A stretch of 64,000 nucleotides of DNA from a virus (taxonomy: Duplodnaviria > Caudoviricetes): positions 1-64,000 of IMG/VR virus record IMGVR_UViG_3300027715_000010; one strand, written 5' to 3'. A model generated the notes under the pieces. The model worked only from the letters and a program-made list of their open reading frames with translations, was not told the origin of the DNA and did no database searches. The position numbers and the translations under genes are program-made. Position 1 is the stretch's first letter, and every line of letters begins with the position of its first letter. Of this stretch, positions 9,705 through 40,370 are shown one piece after another.

Positions 9705-9746
9705 ACCGGCATAGATTTAATCCTTTCGGTCTATGCCGGTATTTTT
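9705..9746 (+). terminator. Rho-independent terminator
   Basis: ACCGGCATAGA...TCTATGCCGGT + T run. Confidence 0.8.
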
Positions 9747-9786: not shown

Positions 9787-10353
9787 ATGAGACTATTTAC
9801 ACTCTGGAGGATTTTTGTTTTTATAGCTATTATTACGGTGCTAAGCTATATTAAACCGGTGAACGATTACTTGATTTCACCATCATTAAAGTTAACTAGT
9901 AATTTATCTGATAAAATCATACATAGAGCAGAAGCTTCAGTAGTAATGCCGAAGTATGATAGATCTGAATTACTTTGTCTAACCGAGGCAATCTATTATG
10001 AAGCAGGAAATCAAAGTACTGCTGGTAAGATGGCAGTTGCTTCAGTTATTATGAATAGAAAGAATAATAAGAACTTTCCAAATACTATCTGTGGAGTTAT
10101 TAAACAGGGGGAAACAGATGAATACGGGGAAATGGTTCTGAATAAATGCCAGTTTTCTTATAAGTGCGATGGTATTAAAGAAGATATGAAGGATCCAGAA
10201 CTAATTAAACAATGTATGAAAGTAGCAGAATATATGCTCAAGACAGGATCTCAATCAAATGCTTTGTTTTATCACGCTGATTATGTAAAACCAAAATGGT
10301 CTAAAGACTATACTTTGATTAGTCAGATTGGGGACCATTTGTTTTATAAATAG
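9787..10353 (+). CDS. Cell wall hydrolase, SleB/Hydrolase_2 family, N-terminal signal/TM anchor
   Basis: CLTEAIYYEA..Q...GK.AVA.VI.NR....FPNTICGV, CQFS, ALFYHADYV.P.W, IGDHLFY. Confidence 0.92.
   Translation: MRLFTLWRIFVFIAIITVLSYIKPVNDYLISPSLKLTSNLSDKIIHRAEASVVMPKYDRSELLCLTEAIYYEAGNQSTAGKMAVASVIMNRKNNKNFPNTICGVIKQGETDEYGEMVLNKCQFSYKCDGIKEDMKDPELIKQCMKVAEYMLKTGSQSNALFYHADYVKPKWSKDYTLISQIGDHLFYK
10345..10352 (+). promoter_or_regulatory. Late promoter TATAAATA
   Basis: Overlaps the hydrolase stop, precedes the structured hsp20 leader. Confidence 0.7.
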
Positions 10354-10362
10354 AATTACAAT

Positions 10363-10483
10363 TAGGCTTCTGACAATTCGGACGCCTTGGGGAGGTCCCA
10401 GTATTGGGACCTATCCCTAAAGAAGTAGATGCCATAGTGGGTCTACAATAACATAAACTTGCTTAATAAAGGAGTTAAAAATG
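10363..10483 (+). promoter_or_regulatory. Structured hsp20 5' leader, ROSE-like RNA thermometer
   Basis: Three upstream hairpins then CTTGCTT-aat-AAAGGAG pairing the SD with a bulged G. Confidence 0.6.
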
Positions 10484-10891
10484 CAATTAGAAGACTTATT
10501 TTTATCAACATTATGCCAAAACTATCCAGGGCAAACAGCAAAGTATCCCCCAACTAATATCGCAACTATTCAAGAAGACGGTAAAGTTGTCGGTGGATTT
10601 ATTGAAATCGCAGTTGCTGGTTTTAGTAAAGAAGATATACATATCTCAAAAGAACCAATCCCCGGTACTTCCAAAACAAAATTGGTAGTCTACGGCAATG
10701 GTACAGATGGTACCCCAGATGATATCGTTTATAGTTTACGTGAATTAGCTATGCGTGATTTTGAACGAACTTTTGTATTGGATGCTTTCATAGAAGTTAA
10801 GGATATTACATTGATTGATGGTATTCTTACAATTAAAGTGGATCGTGTTTTACCAAAAGAGATGAAACCGGTTAAACTAACAATTAAATAA
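10481..10891 (+). CDS. hsp20: Small heat shock protein Hsp20
   Basis: YPP.NI, IEIAVAGFSKEDI, LA.R.FER.F.L, L.DGIL.I...R..P.E.KP. Confidence 0.92.
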   Translation: MQLEDLFLSTLCQNYPGQTAKYPPTNIATIQEDGKVVGGFIEIAVAGFSKEDIHISKEPIPGTSKTKLVVYGNGTDGTPDDIVYSLRELAMRDFERTFVLDAFIEVKDITLIDGILTIKVDRVLPKEMKPVKLTIK

Positions 10892-22088: not shown

Positions 22089-22361
22089 ATGAATATCAAT
22101 ACCATTAAAGAAACAATCAAATCTAAAGTACAATCCAATACAATAGAACCAGCAGACAGGAACCTAGCCATTTATGATATAGTTAGCACAGAAATAGAGC
22201 AACTATCAACCAGTGACCTTCTGGATTGCTTCCGTGAACAATCCGATTTAGGTATTATTAAAGAACAACACCTAACACCGAACTTCTTAACAGAAACAGT
22301 AGATGTAATTATATTTGACAATTTAGTAGATTTAGTGTATGATTATGCTCTAACAATTTAG
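22089..22361 (+). CDS. Early hypothetical protein
   Basis: RBS GGGGAAG. Confidence 0.65.
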   Translation: MNINTIKETIKSKVQSNTIEPADRNLAIYDIVSTEIEQLSTSDLLDCFREQSDLGIIKEQHLTPNFLTETVDVIIFDNLVDLVYDYALTI

Positions 22362-32877: not shown

Positions 32878-32885
32878 TATTTATA
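32878..32885 (-). promoter_or_regulatory. Late promoter TATAAATA (gp20)
   Basis: Consensus adjoining the UUCG hairpin. Confidence 0.85.
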
Positions 32886-32886
32886 A

Positions 32887-32908
32887 GAGGAGGATCCGAA
32901 GATCCTCC
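32887..32908 (-). terminator. cUUCGg hairpin (terminator-like)
   Basis: GGAGGATC-TTCG-GATCCTCC. Confidence 0.7.
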
Positions 32909-33806: not shown

Positions 33807-33825
33807 TTTAGTACTCTTGCATAGT

Positions 33826-33850
33826 TGGGAGGATCCGAAGACCCTCCCGA
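33826..33850 (-). other. cUUCGg hairpin after gp19, near-copy of the 32887 hairpin
   Basis: GGGAGGGTC-TTCG-GATCCTCCC, no U tract. Confidence 0.7.
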
Positions 33851-33857
33851 TTTATTA

Positions 33858-34405: not shown

Positions 34406-36031
34406 TTAAGCTACTATTTCTTCAAAAGATACACCAGTACGGGTAGCAATGAAGTTTAGTTTAATAAAGTTGATTGAACGAGTTGGCTTAATAAACAAAT
34501 TAGCAACGAATTCATTACGATCTATAACTTCACCAGTATTATTGGTTTCATCGCATATTACGAGATAATCAACAACACCTCTACGACCTTGAACATCTCT
34601 TAAGAAAGGTTCTACCGTATTTATAAATGAGCGTCTTGTTATTTCGTCATTGAACTCAAACAACACATATTTTGAAGCTATCGCGATTGATTTTTCTAAT
34701 GTAATAAATAACATTCTTACATTGATACGGTCAAAAGCACTAGGTTTTGTTTGTAATGTTTTATCTCCATATAGTATAGCACCTTCATTAGGGAAGATAA
34801 CACAAGGATTGATTTGTGATTTGTATAATTCATCTCTTGTAGTCTGTGCTTGTGTATATGCAAACTTAACAACGTTCTTAATACGACCACGATTTAGACC
34901 TGCTGGACTAAACCAAGCATCTACATCGTTAGAAGTTTTTGCCATTAAACCAGCAATATCACCATTGAGTGGAACCCAACGATAAGTATCTGCATAACGA
35001 TCGTATTGATATTTCCAAGTACTATCCATAAATGCATAGTTAGAATTACCATATACGGTTCTTGTCGCTTTTACATTGGTTAAAATTGTACTAATAACAC
35101 TTACGTTTACGCAGTCTGTCTTAGCAGGTGATACGAAAACAACGCAATCTTTTCTTACTTCTGCGATATTATCAATTACCCATTTACCAACTGTAGAAGA
35201 TGCACCACCAACAAATAAGGTAGTTACGTCAACATCTTCAACTGATTGGAATAATGCCCAACCAGCTTCTAAGTCTGCATTAGCTGCAGTAGCACCATTG
35301 GCACCACCTGCTAAAGTTACCCCAGAAGAAGCACCAGTTAACAATGAAGCTTTAGCAACATTGATATATGCTGAGTTAGTTTTTAATCTTTCAACTACAT
35401 AATTTGTAGAACCATCAAAGCGTTTTGCTGTAGATGTTAAAGAAACATCGTCAAAAGTTTCTAATACGGTTCCAGCAGTACCAGTGATATTACCCAAAAC
35501 ATCAACTACTACAATATGGAATTGTGAAGCATCTGGAGCACTATCAAATAGGTCTCTATATGCCCAAGTATAATCACCAGAACTATCTACTACATCAAAT
35601 CCAGCAGTATCGCACCAAGCAACTTGAATAGAATTACCTAGAGCACCTGGATATTTTGCAATCCAAAGATCTGTTGATGTACTAAACGAAGTATTTTCAT
35701 ATTCGTCTTGATTTTTAATTAGTTGACCAGTAGTGCCAGCTGAAGCAGATGCCGTAGCATTCAAAGCACCAGTTCCTACTACGCGCACTAATTTAAGATT
35801 AGTAGCATAAGCTAAGAAACTAGCTGCTGCAAACCAACCTTCATAATTTGAACTTCCTGGTTTACCGAATTGAGAAACGAGGTTTTGCTCGCTATCAATC
35901 GTTGTGATAACATCTACAGGTCCCCAAGCAGCTTCCAATACTGTACCACCATTAGAGGTAGCGACAGCTGGAACGTAAGCTGATTGGTCTGTTTCTGTTA
36001 CTAAAACACCAGGAGATAATTGTGTAACCAT
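34406..36031 (-). CDS. gp18: Tail sheath protein
   Basis: SPGV...E.D, WGP, FGKP, WFSPAG.NRG, RD.LY...INP, GDKT...KPSAFDRINVR.LF, KP.RSINFI.LNF.ATR. Confidence 0.97.
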   Translation of the reverse strand: MVTQLSPGVLVTETDQSAYVPAVATSNGGTVLEAAWGPVDVITTIDSEQNLVSQFGKPGSSNYEGWFAAASFLAYATNLKLVRVVGTGALNATASASAGTTGQLIKNQDEYENTSFSTSTDLWIAKYPGALGNSIQVAWCDTAGFDVVDSSGDYTWAYRDLFDSAPDASQFHIVVVDVLGNITGTAGTVLETFDDVSLTSTAKRFDGSTNYVVERLKTNSAYINVAKASLLTGASSGVTLAGGANGATAANADLEAGWALFQSVEDVDVTTLFVGGASSTVGKWVIDNIAEVRKDCVVFVSPAKTDCVNVSVISTILTNVKATRTVYGNSNYAFMDSTWKYQYDRYADTYRWVPLNGDIAGLMAKTSNDVDAWFSPAGLNRGRIKNVVKFAYTQAQTTRDELYKSQINPCVIFPNEGAILYGDKTLQTKPSAFDRINVRMLFITLEKSIAIASKYVLFEFNDEITRRSFINTVEPFLRDVQGRRGVVDYLVICDETNNTGEVIDRNEFVANLFIKPTRSINFIKLNFIATRTGVSFEEIVA

Positions 36032-36112
36032 TTATTTTATGACTCCTTTTTACTTTTGCAAAAGTACCTCATTTCAGAGGCACAATTTCTTATGATATAG
36101 AAAAACTTTATA

Positions 36113-36146
36113 TATCTTCGTCTATATTTATGCTTACTAAAAAATC
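36113..36146 (-). repeat. Degenerate direct repeat, downstream of tnpB; contains variant late promoter CATAAATA for gp18
   Basis: GATTTTTTAG-TAAGCATAAATA-TAGACGAAGATA versus the upstream copy 37361..37395. Confidence 0.65.
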
Positions 36147-36150
36147 GGCG

Positions 36151-37305
36151 TTAATTTATTTCCGAAAGCAAAGGCTGCATATCACCTTTTTGTAATATAT
36201 TAATAGCTGCATTATAATCAGCATCCATTTCCACACCACACGAAGAGCACTTATAGTACTCCCCCTTTCTATTGGTTTTCATTATAACCCCACAACACGA
36301 GCATCTTTGGCTTGTATATGCTGGAGCAACCTTAGTAACCTGGAAACCTTCCATTTCACTAAGGAAACCTAATTTTTCTAATACTTGTCTATAAGACCAG
36401 TATTGCATTTTATTCATAAGATTTGTAGATAACTTAGTATTATTCTTAACTAATTTAAGATCTTCTACATATAATGTATGTAATTCTGTATCACTTACTA
36501 ATTTCTTGCATAATCTATTAATTTCATCTGTTTTATATTTAAGTAGTTTTTCATATCTTCTACTACCTCTTTGCTTCTTTGCAATTCTATTATAAAGATC
36601 TTTTAATTCTTTGCCATAGAATTCACCTTCAGAAGTACTAATTAACTTATTATAACCTATATCAATTCCTATCTTTTTACCAGTAGTCTTCTTATCTGGT
36701 GTTTTACATTCCCAAAAATAGTTGACATAATACTTACCATTTTTATTTGATAGTCGTACGGTATTCTTTCTTTTACAATTATTATACTTTTTCATATAGT
36801 TATATAATTGTACAGGAAATTTTATAGATTTAGAATATGGGGTTTTAATAAGAAGAAAATTATTTTGTATATTAAAAACTCTAGAATCCAAGCTTATATT
36901 GATATTCTTTAGATTTATTTTAATTCTTTTCTTATAGTTTATATTTAATTCTTTAAAGTGTTTTGAGGTAAACTTATATTGTCTACCATTTTTTAAGAAG
37001 TAACTATATACCTTCTTGTATCTTTTAAAGGTTCTATTCCTAGTATAGTTTATATTAGATCTAACAATTTCAGAAGCTTGCTTGTATATTATCTGCTTCC
37101 AACCAGAATGATGTATAGTATAACCTGGTAGTAAAGGTGAAGATAATAATGATTTTAATGGTATTTTTTCTTCTAATATATCTTGGATATACATTCTTAG
37201 TTGATTCTCATAGTCAATAAAAATACAATCTAGCATTTCTATTTTACCAGTGTTAGATAACATTAGACTATGTTTAGAAGTTCTTATATAAATACCGTCA
37301 GACAA
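36151..37305 (-). mobile_element. tnpB: TnpB RNA-guided endonuclease (IS200/IS605/IS607 family), no transposase in window
   Basis: RuvC-I GIDIG, RuvC-II VEDL, YTSQRC..CG, C..CG, RuvC-III DADYNAAINIL. Confidence 0.92.
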
Positions 37306-37360
37306 ATCAATAGTTCCTTTATTGGTGTTGTTTAGAGGGTATAGATTCGTCCAGAATCTT

Positions 37361-37395
37361 TATCCTCGTATAGTATTTATAATATCTAAAAAATC
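37361..37395 (-). repeat. Degenerate direct repeat, upstream of tnpB; contains late promoter TATAAATA (37374..37381)
   Basis: GATTTTTTAGATATTATAAATACTATACGAGGATA. Confidence 0.65.
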
Positions 37396-37412
37396 ACAAT
37401 ATCCCAAGTTTA

Positions 37413-37490
37413 TAAAGTCGGTGGCCAAGTAAACGGAGGGGAAGACCTAGCCACCGTAGAATATAGCACCGGAGGAGAAAAGTGCTATAA
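37413..37490 (-). ncRNA. Putative late small RNA, two hairpins with anti-SD loops
   Basis: TATAGCAC-ttttCTCCTCCg-GTGCTATA and CGGTGGCTAGG-tcttCCCCTCCgttta-CTTGGCCACCG directly behind TATAAATA. Confidence 0.6.
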
Positions 37491-37493
37491 TAC

Positions 37494-37501
37494 TATTTAT
37501 A
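37494..37501 (-). promoter_or_regulatory. Late promoter TATAAATA overlapping the gp17 stop
   Basis: Consensus 4 nt before hairpin 1. Confidence 0.75.
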
Positions 37502-39074
37502 TTATCAATGAAGTATCATTATACAATCTATTAGTATCTTTATCTTCTACCCCATTATCAATATAAGTTACTGGCATAAAGTCATCAAAGTTAGTATTGA
37601 TAGTGTTTCTAAAACTAAGATCCGTCATATCCTTGAAATCATCTTTTGAAGAGAACCAGGCGAATAGAACTAGACCCATTACCAAGTCGTCGTGGTGTCC
37701 ATCATCTGCACAATAGGTATAACCATATCTAATAAAGTTGTTTAGTTCTGTTATGGTATTTTCATCGGTTAGAATTAACTTATCTTGCTCTATTAGTTCC
37801 TTTAGATTTATACAACCAATCTTCTTTACGTTCTTATTGGTTCTAATACCCATTACACCTTTTTCCGTAAAGATTATATTTTCATATTCACACTCGTGTA
37901 AAAGTATATGCCCAACCTCTTGTCCAACCGAATTGGTCTCTAATAATACATAAGCATTATTGAACTTTCTGGCAACTTCATAGATAACATCTGGAAACTG
38001 TAAATAACTCATTGTATTATCATAAAAAGTTGCAACCTGACGCATCGGGAACTCTGTAATATCTATCACACTAAACGCATTATAGTCCTGTCCTTTACCC
38101 TCTGAGCAATCCACGGTTAGCATATAAACATTACTTTTTTTGCTTTCTTCATCTGTCTTAGGGTATTCATATACACGAAGACCATCTTTCTGATACTCTG
38201 GTTTACCATTTACCAAATTACGTAGTTTAGTTGCAGATATCAATGTATCACAAGATCCAAGAAAAGCATTATTGTATTCTTGCTCAAACTTATCTAAGGA
38301 CATCGTTTTAAGCATCTTTTCTTTCCAGGCGTCATCTCTACCAGGAACGTCCCAATAGTTAACCTTAATTGGACAGAATAAAGAATTACCTTGCTCGGCA
38401 TCCGTCCACATCTGATAAAAATGATTAAGTCCATTTGGTGTAGATGATATAATAATCTTTGAATTCTTACCAGATGAGATAGTAGGGAATACGGAACTTA
38501 TAAACTCTTGAGCTAAGTCATTGGAAATAAAAGAGAACTCATCAAGGAGCACACTTGAGATTGAACGCCCACGCACTGCGGAAGCACTTGTAGCACTTGC
38601 AGTAATCTTAGAACCATTTTCCAGCTCAATAGAACTCTTATTCCATTCCACGATACCGATCTGCATCCAGAAAGGTAGATTTTCATACATCAGTTTAATA
38701 CGTCCAAGCAGTTCCAATGCGATTGCGTGTTTATTGGCAAGGATTGCGCATTCGTGATAATCATTGAATATAACTGCGTGTAATAGATAAATCAGACCAC
38801 TGGTAGACTTACCAGTTTGTCTTGGGGATAGAACTATCGTAAATCTGTTATCGTAGTAACTCTGGACAAGTCTTTCTTGGTATGGATAAAGATTGATATT
38901 CATTAGACCCTTATCCAGGTTAATAATCTTTACATAATTATTAGCAAAGTACTTAATATCAGTTTTACACCTGATAAGTTCGTCTATTTGCTCTTGAGTA
39001 AAGTTAACCTTAACGTTCTCAGCTTTAAGTCTTGGATTGTTAAGATAATACTGTGGACCTTTGAATTCTTTCAT
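37497..39074 (-). CDS. gp17: Terminase large subunit
   Basis: Y..NP.LK, PRQTGKS, ILANK...A, ELENGS.I, LLDEF, SSTPNG.NHFY, DD.VM.LV.F.W; no intein seen. Confidence 0.98.
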   Translation of the reverse strand: MKEFKGPQYYLNNPRLKAENVKVNFTQEQIDELIRCKTDIKYFANNYVKIINLDKGLMNINLYPYQERLVQSYYDNRFTIVLSPRQTGKSTSGLIYLLHAVIFNDYHECAILANKHAIALELLGRIKLMYENLPFWMQIGIVEWNKSSIELENGSKITASATSASAVRGRSISSVLLDEFSFISNDLAQEFISSVFPTISSGKNSKIIISSTPNGLNHFYQMWTDAEQGNSLFCPIKVNYWDVPGRDDAWKEKMLKTMSLDKFEQEYNNAFLGSCDTLISATKLRNLVNGKPEYQKDGLRVYEYPKTDEESKKSNVYMLTVDCSEGKGQDYNAFSVIDITEFPMRQVATFYDNTMSYLQFPDVIYEVARKFNNAYVLLETNSVGQEVGHILLHECEYENIIFTEKGVMGIRTNKNVKKIGCINLKELIEQDKLILTDENTITELNNFIRYGYTYCADDGHHDDLVMGLVLFAWFSSKDDFKDMTDLSFRNTINTNFDDFMPVTYIDNGVEDKDTNRLYNDTSLII

Positions 39075-39090
39075 CCTCCGTCTCCTACCG

Positions 39091-39561
39091 TTAGACCTTT
39101 ATATCTTCGGATGTATCTTTCTTTTTATTACCAATCATTTCAAGCACTTCCTTGGTAGATCCAACAAGTAAAGTCTGATTGGTTATATTTTGTACAGAAC
39201 CATTTTCTGGAGTAGGGAACTTGCTGGTAGCATCCTTACGTGTTTTATAAAGTTGTATCAACTTTTCATTGGCAGTTACTATCTCTTTCATCATTTTAGT
39301 AATCTGCTCATAGATCTTTGGTTCTTGTGTCATAGCTGCAAGTTGCATAAGTTCTTGCATATTTTGATTACCGGTATCTATCACGTTCTTTAGTTGCTTT
39401 CTTGCATAATCAAAGTCATCGTCTATATTACCAGGGGTGGATTCTGGTTCTACATCAATGATTTTCTCTTCCCGTGGTGTGATATTCATTAGAGGTTTTA
39501 GTTCTCTACCGATATCTTCGGCAATATCTAAAACTTGTCCTAACTTTTGGTTTGGTATCAT
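39091..39561 (-). CDS. gp16: Terminase small subunit
   Basis: DD.DYAR..L...I..G, P..YE, N...VGST.E.L; position. Confidence 0.88.
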   Translation of the reverse strand: MIPNQKLGQVLDIAEDIGRELKPLMNITPREEKIIDVEPESTPGNIDDDFDYARKQLKNVIDTGNQNMQELMQLAAMTQEPKIYEQITKMMKEIVTANEKLIQLYKTRKDATSKFPTPENGSVQNITNQTLLVGSTKEVLEMIGNKKKDTSEDIKV

Positions 39562-39575
39562 ATAAACTCCGTTTT

Positions 39576-40370
39576 CTATTCTATAATATCTGTTATTGCT
39601 TCGTCAAAAATAGAGTCAGGATCCGTAAGATCTACGATTCCTTGGTCTATTTTATATTGCTCTACGTAAGTATCTAATTCTTCAATCTTATTTTGCATAG
39701 CTGGATCGTTGTAGATATTAGCTATAACTTTCTTAATAATTTTTGCGTCTGTAATTGGTGGATATAAATGACCTAATACAGTAAACTCCAACTTCCAGGT
39801 TATCATACGTGTTGTTGCCAATTCACCATCATAAGAATCCTCGTGAGTAATAGATTTATAGATAATCTGAAGATCCCTAGTAATACCTAATTGCGGTATA
39901 TCTTTTAAGGTTACTGATAGATTTGGTGTAAAGTATGGTAGAATCTGCTCTATAATCTGTAAACCATCATCTAGATTCTTACTCATTATATTCAAGGCAA
40001 AGTTAAACTTATATGGTATCGGATTAAGTTGCTTCAACATACTTGTAAGTTCTTGTGGTTGAAGTATCTTGTCAGTATTACTAATCATAGTAGTTAACTT
40101 ACGGCTAGCATCATATTCCATACCAGTCATTTCAAAAGACATTCTAGGCAAAAGCATTCTAATGTTGGTCTTACCACCGATCTGTCTTCTTTGTGCTTGC
40201 TCTTGAATTGCTCTTAACCATTTATGCTTTGGTCCATAAGATAATGGAACCTTGATAGTTTGAACTTCATTACCATTAGCATCCGTTCTTACAATAGATA
40301 TATTATTGAATACAGTACCAAAGGCAGATACGATTCTTCTAGTTGTAGCAAAATAAAAAGTTTGAAACAT
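39576..40370 (-). CDS. gp15: Tail sheath stabilizer / completion protein
   Basis: FY....R..V.AFGT.FN.I, VPLSYGP..KW, LPRMSFE, YD..RK, QI.EQILPYF.P. Confidence 0.95.
   Translation of the reverse strand: MFQTFYFATTRRIVSAFGTVFNNISIVRTDANGNEVQTIKVPLSYGPKHKWLRAIQEQAQRRQIGGKTNIRMLLPRMSFEMTGMEYDASRKLTTMISNTDKILQPQELTSMLKQLNPIPYKFNFALNIMSKNLDDGLQIIEQILPYFTPNLSVTLKDIPQLGITRDLQIIYKSITHEDSYDGELATTRMITWKLEFTVLGHLYPPITDAKIIKKVIANIYNDPAMQNKIEELDTYVEQYKIDQGIVDLTDPDSIFDEAITDIIE

Follow-up and report, generated by a model that had tools for sequence, protein, structure and literature searches.

At the junction between the large terminase gene and the tail sheath gene of an uncultured T4-like phage, two adjacent G+C-rich hairpins carry anti-Shine-Dalgarno (anti-SD) sequences in their loops, and the locus raises the question of what such a pair of hairpins does there. 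To our knowledge, little has been learned about regulatory RNAs in lytic phages, and the control of terminase dosage in T4-like phages is not understood at the RNA level. We analyzed the hairpins, here called HP1 and HP2, together with their genomic setting, possible relatives and predicted binding partners.

The hairpins lie between gp17 and tnpB in an orphan T4-like phage

The window, by which we mean the whole 64,000-nt stretch of DNA analyzed, is part of an IMG/VR record of 94 kb with a G+C content of 33% and an estimated completeness of ~52%. All genes around the hairpins are on the minus strand and follow the T4 order (Table 1). A nucleotide search of a phage collection with positions 36000-37600 as the query returned no match, and peptide patterns drawn from the window's gp17 alone matched nothing when run against viral contigs. 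At the protein level, the best identity of gp17 among 5.8 billion proteins was 51%, and the closest isolates are cyanomyoviruses, at ~47% identity. The phage is an uncultured, lytic, T4-like orphan. Its LpxC gene was also used to look for the host; the search gave no close homologue and phylum-level hints only, and the gene points only to a Gram-negative host and to nothing narrower.

Table 1. Positions of the genes, hairpins, promoter boxes and repeats around the gp17-gp18 junction, in window coordinates
Feature	Position	Strand	Description and basis
gp15	39576-40370	minus	
gp16, small terminase	39091-39561	minus	
gp17 translation initiation region	39075-39090	minus	CGGUAGGAGACGGAGG then AUG; two SD-like boxes
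gp17, large terminase subunit	37497-39074	minus	Pfam Terminase_6N and Terminase_6C
T4-type late promoter box (putative)	37501-37494	minus	exact box TATAAATA; contains gp17 stop TAA (37499-37497)
HP1	37489-37462	minus	28 nt; 9-bp stem UAUAGCACU/GGUGCUAUA; 10-nt loop UUUCUCCUCC; predicted fold
HP2	37456-37419	minus	38 nt; 12-bp stem including two G-U pairs; 14-nt loop CUUCCCCUCCGUUU; predicted fold
A/U-rich tail after HP2	37403-37418	minus	ACUUUAUAAACUUGGG; weak U-tract, 4 U in first 8 nt
Direct repeat, upstream copy	37359-37395	minus	GATTTTTTAG..ATAAATA..ACGARGATA; pairwise alignment; holds second TATAAATA
Second promoter box	37381-37374	minus	TATAAATA; ahead of tnpB, after HP2
tnpB leader hairpin	37335-37367	minus	GAGG paired with CCUC; fold of 201-nt spacer
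tnpB	36151-37305	minus	384 aa, TTG start; Pfam PF07282 and PF01385; alignment of 22 homologues
Direct repeat, downstream copy	36111-36146	minus	5 nt after tnpB stop; CATAAATA ahead of gp18
gp18, tail sheath	34406-36031	minus	

HP1 and HP2 form a strand-specific fold and share a rare loop motif

An earlier, sequence-only reading of this DNA had described a box over the gp17 stop codon followed at once by two GC-rich hairpins with anti-SD loops, and the coordinates and predicted folds confirm this arrangement. The hairpins begin 8 nt after the gp17 stop and are joined by a linker of 5 nt. As minus-strand RNA, the segment folds with a free energy of -29.5 kcal/mol (z -3.55), which none of 200 shuffled sequences equaled, whereas the plus-strand fold reaches only -21.6 kcal/mol (z -0.79), with 37 of 200 shuffles as good. 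The two G-U pairs are present in the minus-strand RNA only and, as had been proposed, favor that strand. The gap between gp17 and tnpB contains no open reading frame with a ribosome site, the only candidates being fragments of 21-36 aa that start with TTG or ATG, which agrees with the earlier statement that no ORF is present.

The loops are as distinctive as the fold. Both contain CCUCCG, a motif that is rare in the sense RNA of this genome, and the longer strings CTCCTCC, in the HP1 loop, and CCCCTCC, in the HP2 loop, each occur a single time in the 94 kb. Indeed, CCUCC as such is depleted in sense RNA, with 10 and 15 sites on the two strands compared with 22-25 expected; the sense RNA of the minus-strand gene block has only 5 such sites, and two of these are the loops of HP1 and HP2. 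The hairpin segment is moreover G+C-rich within a 33% G+C genome. Because the fold is strong on one strand and the loop motifs are rare, the hairpin observation is confirmed and is not a chance pattern; it is unlikely that structure and motif coincide by chance, and the folding predictions support HP1 and HP2 as real, strand-specific RNA structures.

The putative promoter box lies in the gp18 late-promoter slot

The box TATAAATA is not rare by itself, given that 38 copies are present in the 94-kb genome and ~30 are expected from base composition. To place it in context, we fetched 80 distant T4-like loci and read the DNA 3' of the gp17 stop. In 28 of these loci, the gp17-gp18 spacer is short (49-117 nt) and consists only of a promoter and a leader of 50-85 nt; these spacers fold weakly (-1.5 to -14 kcal/mol). 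Each of the 28 has a NATAAATA-type box that begins at -5 to +40 nt relative to the gp17 stop. Because all short-spacer relatives keep the box at this position, the window's box matches the gp18 late-promoter slot, and since a T4-type late promoter is defined by such a box at about -10, upstream of a late-gene slot, it can be regarded as a putative T4-type late promoter. In T4, late transcription starts ~6 nt after the promoter box. By analogy, the +1 position would be ~6 nt 3' of the box, and we infer that the RNA would start at the foot of HP1. The second box, which precedes tnpB, fits the earlier claim that this gene has a promoter of its own.

Hairpins resembling HP1 and HP2 are absent from the gp17-gp18 spacer in all 80 distant loci, and they are therefore an addition specific to the lineage of the window phage. 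Approximately 35 other distant T4-like loci have a small ORF of ~80-100 aa between gp17 and gp18. One such ORF, at L181:4120-4359, was searched and matches endonuclease VII (phrog_4723, E 9e-38). The slot taken by these small ORFs is the place that tnpB occupies in the window, and tnpB is likewise a RuvC-type nuclease gene. Because most relatives outside the short-spacer group carry a small ORF there, the gp17-gp18 junction is a common site for extra DNA. The module, being in a hot spot for the insertion of mobile genes, could have arisen as a side effect of that insertion.

It can be asked whether HP1 and HP2 have a selected function at all, or whether they are a chance pair of palindromes or the decaying remnant of a recombination event at the gp17-gp18 junction. 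That the sequence is an orphan and that the junction is an insertion hot spot both agree with such an origin, but it would have to produce a fold with a z-score of -3.55 on one strand only and two rare motifs that are each centered in a loop. We consider an origin of this kind improbable.

HP1 and HP2 are unlike the terminators and other hairpins of the phage

The main rival to a regulatory role for the loops is a simple barrier or stabilizer of transcripts: the hairpins would end or attenuate gp15-17 late transcription and protect the 3' end of the gp17 mRNA, the loop sequences being incidental. The same barrier could shield the inserted tnpB from impinging transcription in the manner of the IS200 left-end terminator. 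From position alone this role is plausible. The hairpins start directly past the gp17 stop, and the order of a hairpin and then a late promoter recurs in the phage, at 9705-9740 (promoter at 9746) and at 32908-32889 (promoter at 32885); HP2 precedes the second TATAAATA, at 37381, in the same way. There is also a precedent at the left end of IS200, where a terminator acts against impinging transcription and a hairpin in the 5' UTR sequesters the SD (PMC4513863), the 5' UTR being processed into a regulatory sRNA (PMC4513863, PMC5435999). Similar to this arrangement, the window has a putative hairpin barrier 5' of a transposon-family gene and then a tnpB leader hairpin (37367-37335) that pairs an SD-like GAGG. 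In contrast to the IS200 left end, HP1 and HP2 are outside the tnpB repeat, have large loops, lack a proper U-tract and are absent from related tnpB loci.

The hairpins themselves do not have the form of intrinsic terminators, which combine a G+C-rich stem and a short loop with a U-tract directly after them. HP1 and HP2 have G+C-rich stems but long loops, of 10 and 14 nt, and tails that are poor in U, and a terminator scan made no call at the HP2 site. Canonical terminators with U-runs are found elsewhere in the phage (27544, 17620 and 9705), as are tetraloop hairpins without U-runs (32908, 33851, 6626 and 79864), and its other intergenic hairpins have UUCG, GAAA or GUGA tetraloops. Since the other hairpins of the phage have tetraloops and its canonical terminators have U-runs, the large pyrimidine loops of HP1 and HP2 are atypical for plain terminators. 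A barrier role would, in addition, leave the rare CCUCCG in both loops unexplained, and distant relatives do without any hairpin in the gp17-gp18 spacer. On balance, we regard a plain barrier or stabilizer as possible but somewhat unlikely. The tail after HP2 may still be a zone of processing or weak termination.

Among the tetraloop hairpins, those at 32889-32908 and 33824-33851 are G+C-rich twins with UUCG loops and GGAGG/CCUCC in their stems. They flank an inserted ORF, and one of the twins is directly before the TATAAATA at 32885.

The hairpins are not shared by related tnpB loci

In an alignment of 22 homologues, the RuvC residues of TnpB (D215, E281 and D361) and four zinc-finger cysteines are conserved. 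A TAT codon takes the place of the ATG with which TnpB relatives begin (MIKTSKH; 37284-37305). The frame instead opens with a TTG six codons further 5', and AAAGGAA is a possible ribosome site. With the catalytic residues intact, expression of TnpB may, as judged from this alignment, depend on a non-ATG start. The gene is bracketed by a degenerate direct repeat of ~37 nt, which could be an insertion duplication or a sequence shared by the ends of the element.

The presence of tnpB raises the possibility, also entertained in the sequence-only reading, that the hairpins are linked to this gene. They would then be mobile DNA, either the left end of an IS200/605- or IS607-type tnpB element or cargo of such an element, acting at the level of DNA or as the 5' leader of tnpB. 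Because the gap in relatives consists of a promoter and its 50-85 nt leader, everything in the window from the stop-overlapping promoter to the gp18 ribosome site does look inserted, and the high G+C content of the hairpin segment in this genome is in line with a foreign source. However, both hairpins are outside the tnpB-bracketing repeat, upstream of it, and their G-U pairs point to RNA rather than DNA. The comparison set, which comprised 55 viral loci with a related tnpB and two assembly contigs, gave the same answer. The hairpin region shows no similarity to the flanks of the 55 viral loci, L002 or L003. Of 24 upstream regions of tnpB relatives, 22 have no stable hairpin, and the remaining two have hairpins unlike HP1 and HP2. 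A related hairpin was not found at the right end; an alignment of the 3' ends of tnpB genes defined neither this end nor the boundary of the guide RNA.

Upstream of related tnpB genes, L002 (2834-3000) and L129 (2200-2500) contain C-terminal remnants of a serine recombinase. Because of these remnants, an IS607-type association is suggested for this TnpB clade, rather than a hairpin-using IS200/605 end, and IS607-like elements use no end hairpins. In L127, L130 and L133, a common small ORF is present upstream of tnpB within the element.

Hence the hairpins are neither conserved at related tnpB genes nor mirrored at the right end, as would be expected of an IS200/IS605-IS607 element end. Given the dissimilar flanks and the lack of comparable upstream hairpins in relatives, we reject them as a left end of the tnpB element, and the proposed direct link to TnpB is not upheld by the 55 loci and 24 upstream regions. 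The case for a transposon end is weak, and we give the mobile-DNA explanation as a whole little credence.

The module resembles cuckoo RNAs in design but not in sequence

The hairpins had also been likened to the cuckoo/alpha-r14 sRNAs of Alphaproteobacteria. According to PMC4615179, the family is defined by two to four adjacent hairpins of 24-50 nt each, whose loops span 9-27 nt, whose helices have 6 bp or more and whose linkers do not exceed 10 nt, each loop carrying CCUCCUCCC or a listed variant. HP1 and HP2 are within all of the size limits, with hairpins of 28 and 38 nt, stems of 9 and 12 bp, loops of 10 and 14 nt and a linker of 5 nt. The loop motif is different, as UCUCCUCCG matches 7 and UCCCCUCCG 6 of the 9 positions of CCUCCUCCC, listed variants being left aside. 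Neither is there a terminal hairpin with a U-run, the tail after HP2 being ACUUUAUAAACUU, or the conserved alphaproteobacterial neighborhood, the flanks being phage gp17 and tnpB.

Searches with covariance models led to a similar result. When only the 116 nt around the hairpins were searched, the best of 4227 Rfam families was ar14 (RF02344), at 19.9 bits (E 0.032), and HP1 and HP2 align to the first two hairpins of ar14, whose third hairpin is unmatched. This score is far under the RF02344 gathering score of 58.8 bits. At the gathering threshold, Rfam identified only two tRNAs in the whole window, and thus the Infernal search that the earlier reading had proposed as a check places no family over the hairpins. 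A search of 1.8 kb at E<=10 returned nothing relevant, the ar14 model had no match in the whole phage genome, and sub-threshold ar14 matches were obtained in 9 of 14 unrelated control genomes.

Compared with the cuckoo RNAs of Rhizobiales and Rhodobacterales (ar14, RF02344; CcsR1-4/RSs0680a-d; NfeR1), the module therefore has the same two adjacent hairpins with CCUCC-type anti-SD loops. In contrast to them, it has UCUCCUCCG and UCCCCUCCG in place of CCUCCUCCC, has no terminal U-tailed hairpin, and is located between gp17 and tnpB of a lytic T4-like phage with 33% G+C and not in a conserved alphaproteobacterial neighborhood. Thus the anatomical part of the earlier comparison stands, and family membership does not: the module may be built like, or work like, a cuckoo RNA, but it is not supported as a demonstrable member.

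It follows that the module is highly unlikely to be genuinely homologous to the cuckoo/ar14/CcsR sRNAs, acquired from a host to mimic host regulation. The top rank of ar14 in the 116-nt search, the alignment to its first two hairpins and the agreement with the structural limits of the family are in line with such a capture. However, the score is well below threshold and vanishes in the 1.8-kb and whole-genome searches, comparably weak matches occur in unrelated genomes, neither the third hairpin nor its terminator is present, the loops carry a degenerate form of the motif, LpxC points only to a Gram-negative host, and the pattern search of 185,579 species genomes described below uncovered no real homologue. 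As a claim of membership, this explanation is already largely refuted.

Pattern searches recover transposase starts but no homologue

A loose two-loop pattern gave 119 matches in viral contigs, which is about what chance would give, and not one of the 119 places both motifs in the loops of hairpins. With a stricter pattern there was 1 match among 185,579 species genomes and 17 matches among metagenomes. Sixteen of these fall at the beginning of a gene for an IS3-family transposase, on the strand opposite to it, and are not homologues of the module; the SD is AACGGAGGGGAA, the codons include CCGGAGGAG, the spacing is one base off and the sequence in between is unrelated. The IS3 matches amount to chance, multiplied by the copy number of the IS. 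The other two matches are unstructured and hence due to chance. No homologue of the module was thus found in the viral contigs, the 185,579 species genomes or the metagenomes.

The IS3-family matches (L258-L273) are a multi-copy transposase start (MARKHHKPEEI...) in high-G+C metagenome contigs and an Acetobacterales MAG. They illustrate a general caution, in that patterns written for anti-SD loops also pick up an SD together with coding sequence when these lie on the opposite strand.

Both loops have their best predicted partner in the gp17 initiation region

The sequence-only reading had noted that loop 2 is complementary to ribosome-binding sites of the phage. The matches literally exist, with AACGGAGG in front of the genes at 2272 and 10960 and GGGGAAGAC in front of that at 22089, but they are no better than would be expected of any loop that bears CCUCC. 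To obtain a broader view, 127 initiation regions were ranked by duplex energy against each loop. The gp17 site ranks first of 127 for both loops (-13.2 and -16.0 kcal/mol), and the gp16 initiation region ranks 14th. In controls that kept CCUCC and had scrambled flanks, however, gp17 also came first in 22% of cases with the composition of loop 1 and in 47% with that of loop 2. Because such controls reach rank 1 this often, the top rank of gp17 is mostly generic, and the modeled duplex between the loops and the terminase site can be called no more than suggestive. Furthermore, ACGGAG is not enriched in the genome (17 observed, ~15 expected). Pairing in cis with the ribosome sites of tnpB or gp18 was also considered and set aside as weak, at ranks 81 and 48 of 127.

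Few sites in the genome contain a complete GGAGG, and the gp17 initiation region is among them. Its two SD-like boxes are AGGAGA, at a spacing of 7 nt, and CGGAGG, which abuts the ATG.

Pairing between a 3' UTR and the initiation region of the same mRNA has a precedent in icaR of Staphylococcus aureus, where an anti-SD motif in the 3' UTR pairs with the gene's own SD (PMC3868564). As in icaR, the motif of the gp17 tail is C-rich and anti-SD, and its loops could pair with the gp17 initiation region. Unlike icaR, the module presents the motif in two tandem-hairpin loops with a promoter directly upstream, and the pairing is predicted and has weak specificity, the first rank of gp17 for both loops being set against the frequency with which scrambled controls attain it. 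Exposed C-rich loops are also a property of staphylococcal RNAIII and the Rsa sRNAs, in which C-rich (UCCC) hairpin loops are thought to seed pairing to ribosome-binding sites, according to PMC4615179. These are Gram-positive chromosomal sRNAs, in contrast to a phage late-region element, and the module has no sequence or structural homology to them.

A model for HP1 and HP2 as an anti-SD RNA module

Our tentative best explanation, which may well prove wrong, is that HP1 and HP2 form a late-transcribed RNA module whose exposed CCUCCG anti-SD loops pair with SD regions. The working parts would be the open, pyrimidine-rich loops, and the module would probably be made late in infection in two forms. 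In one, it would be the 5' end of RNAs that start at the TATAAATA box over the gp17 stop; in the other, the 3' untranslated tail of gp16-gp17 read-through transcripts. Weak termination or cleavage in the A/U-rich tail could yield a short, stable RNA of ~70-85 nt, in which both ends would be guarded, the 5' one by HP1 and the 3' one by HP2. By pairing with ribosome sites of the GGAGG type, the loops would reduce translation. With the double SD of gp17 as the best predicted partner, the terminase might limit its own synthesis, in cis or in trans, and other ACGGAGG-type phage sites are further candidate partners.

In favor of this anti-SD module are the fold strength on the minus strand only, the G-U pairs, the loop motifs that are shared and unique, the promoter slot, the rank of gp17 (1/127), the agreement with tandem anti-SD size limits and the top Rfam match of ar14 in the 116-nt search. 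Against it are the lack of a proper U-tract after HP2, the orphan sequence with no relatives found, a target ranking that is largely generic, the near-expected count of ACGGAG (17 vs ~15) and the fact that TATAAATA is common by composition. We are rather doubtful of the more specific proposal that the hairpins are a late-promoter riboregulator that limits gp16/gp17 translation, or competes broadly for GGAGG-type sites, as an independently evolved counterpart of cuckoo/CcsR. If the anti-SD module is real, it would give the phage a simple means to tune or shut off the translation of SD-led messages, and it would mean that tandem hairpins with anti-SD loops had been reused, by convergence, beyond the Alphaproteobacteria. 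At present, its value is that of a well-defined candidate in a single orphan sequence.

Within 10345-10480, a stop codon is again overlapped by TATAAATA. There, the box is at the stop of the ORF 9787-10353 and is followed by a structured leader of ~125 nt, with a hairpin at 10390-10417, and then by the next gene (10481-10891).
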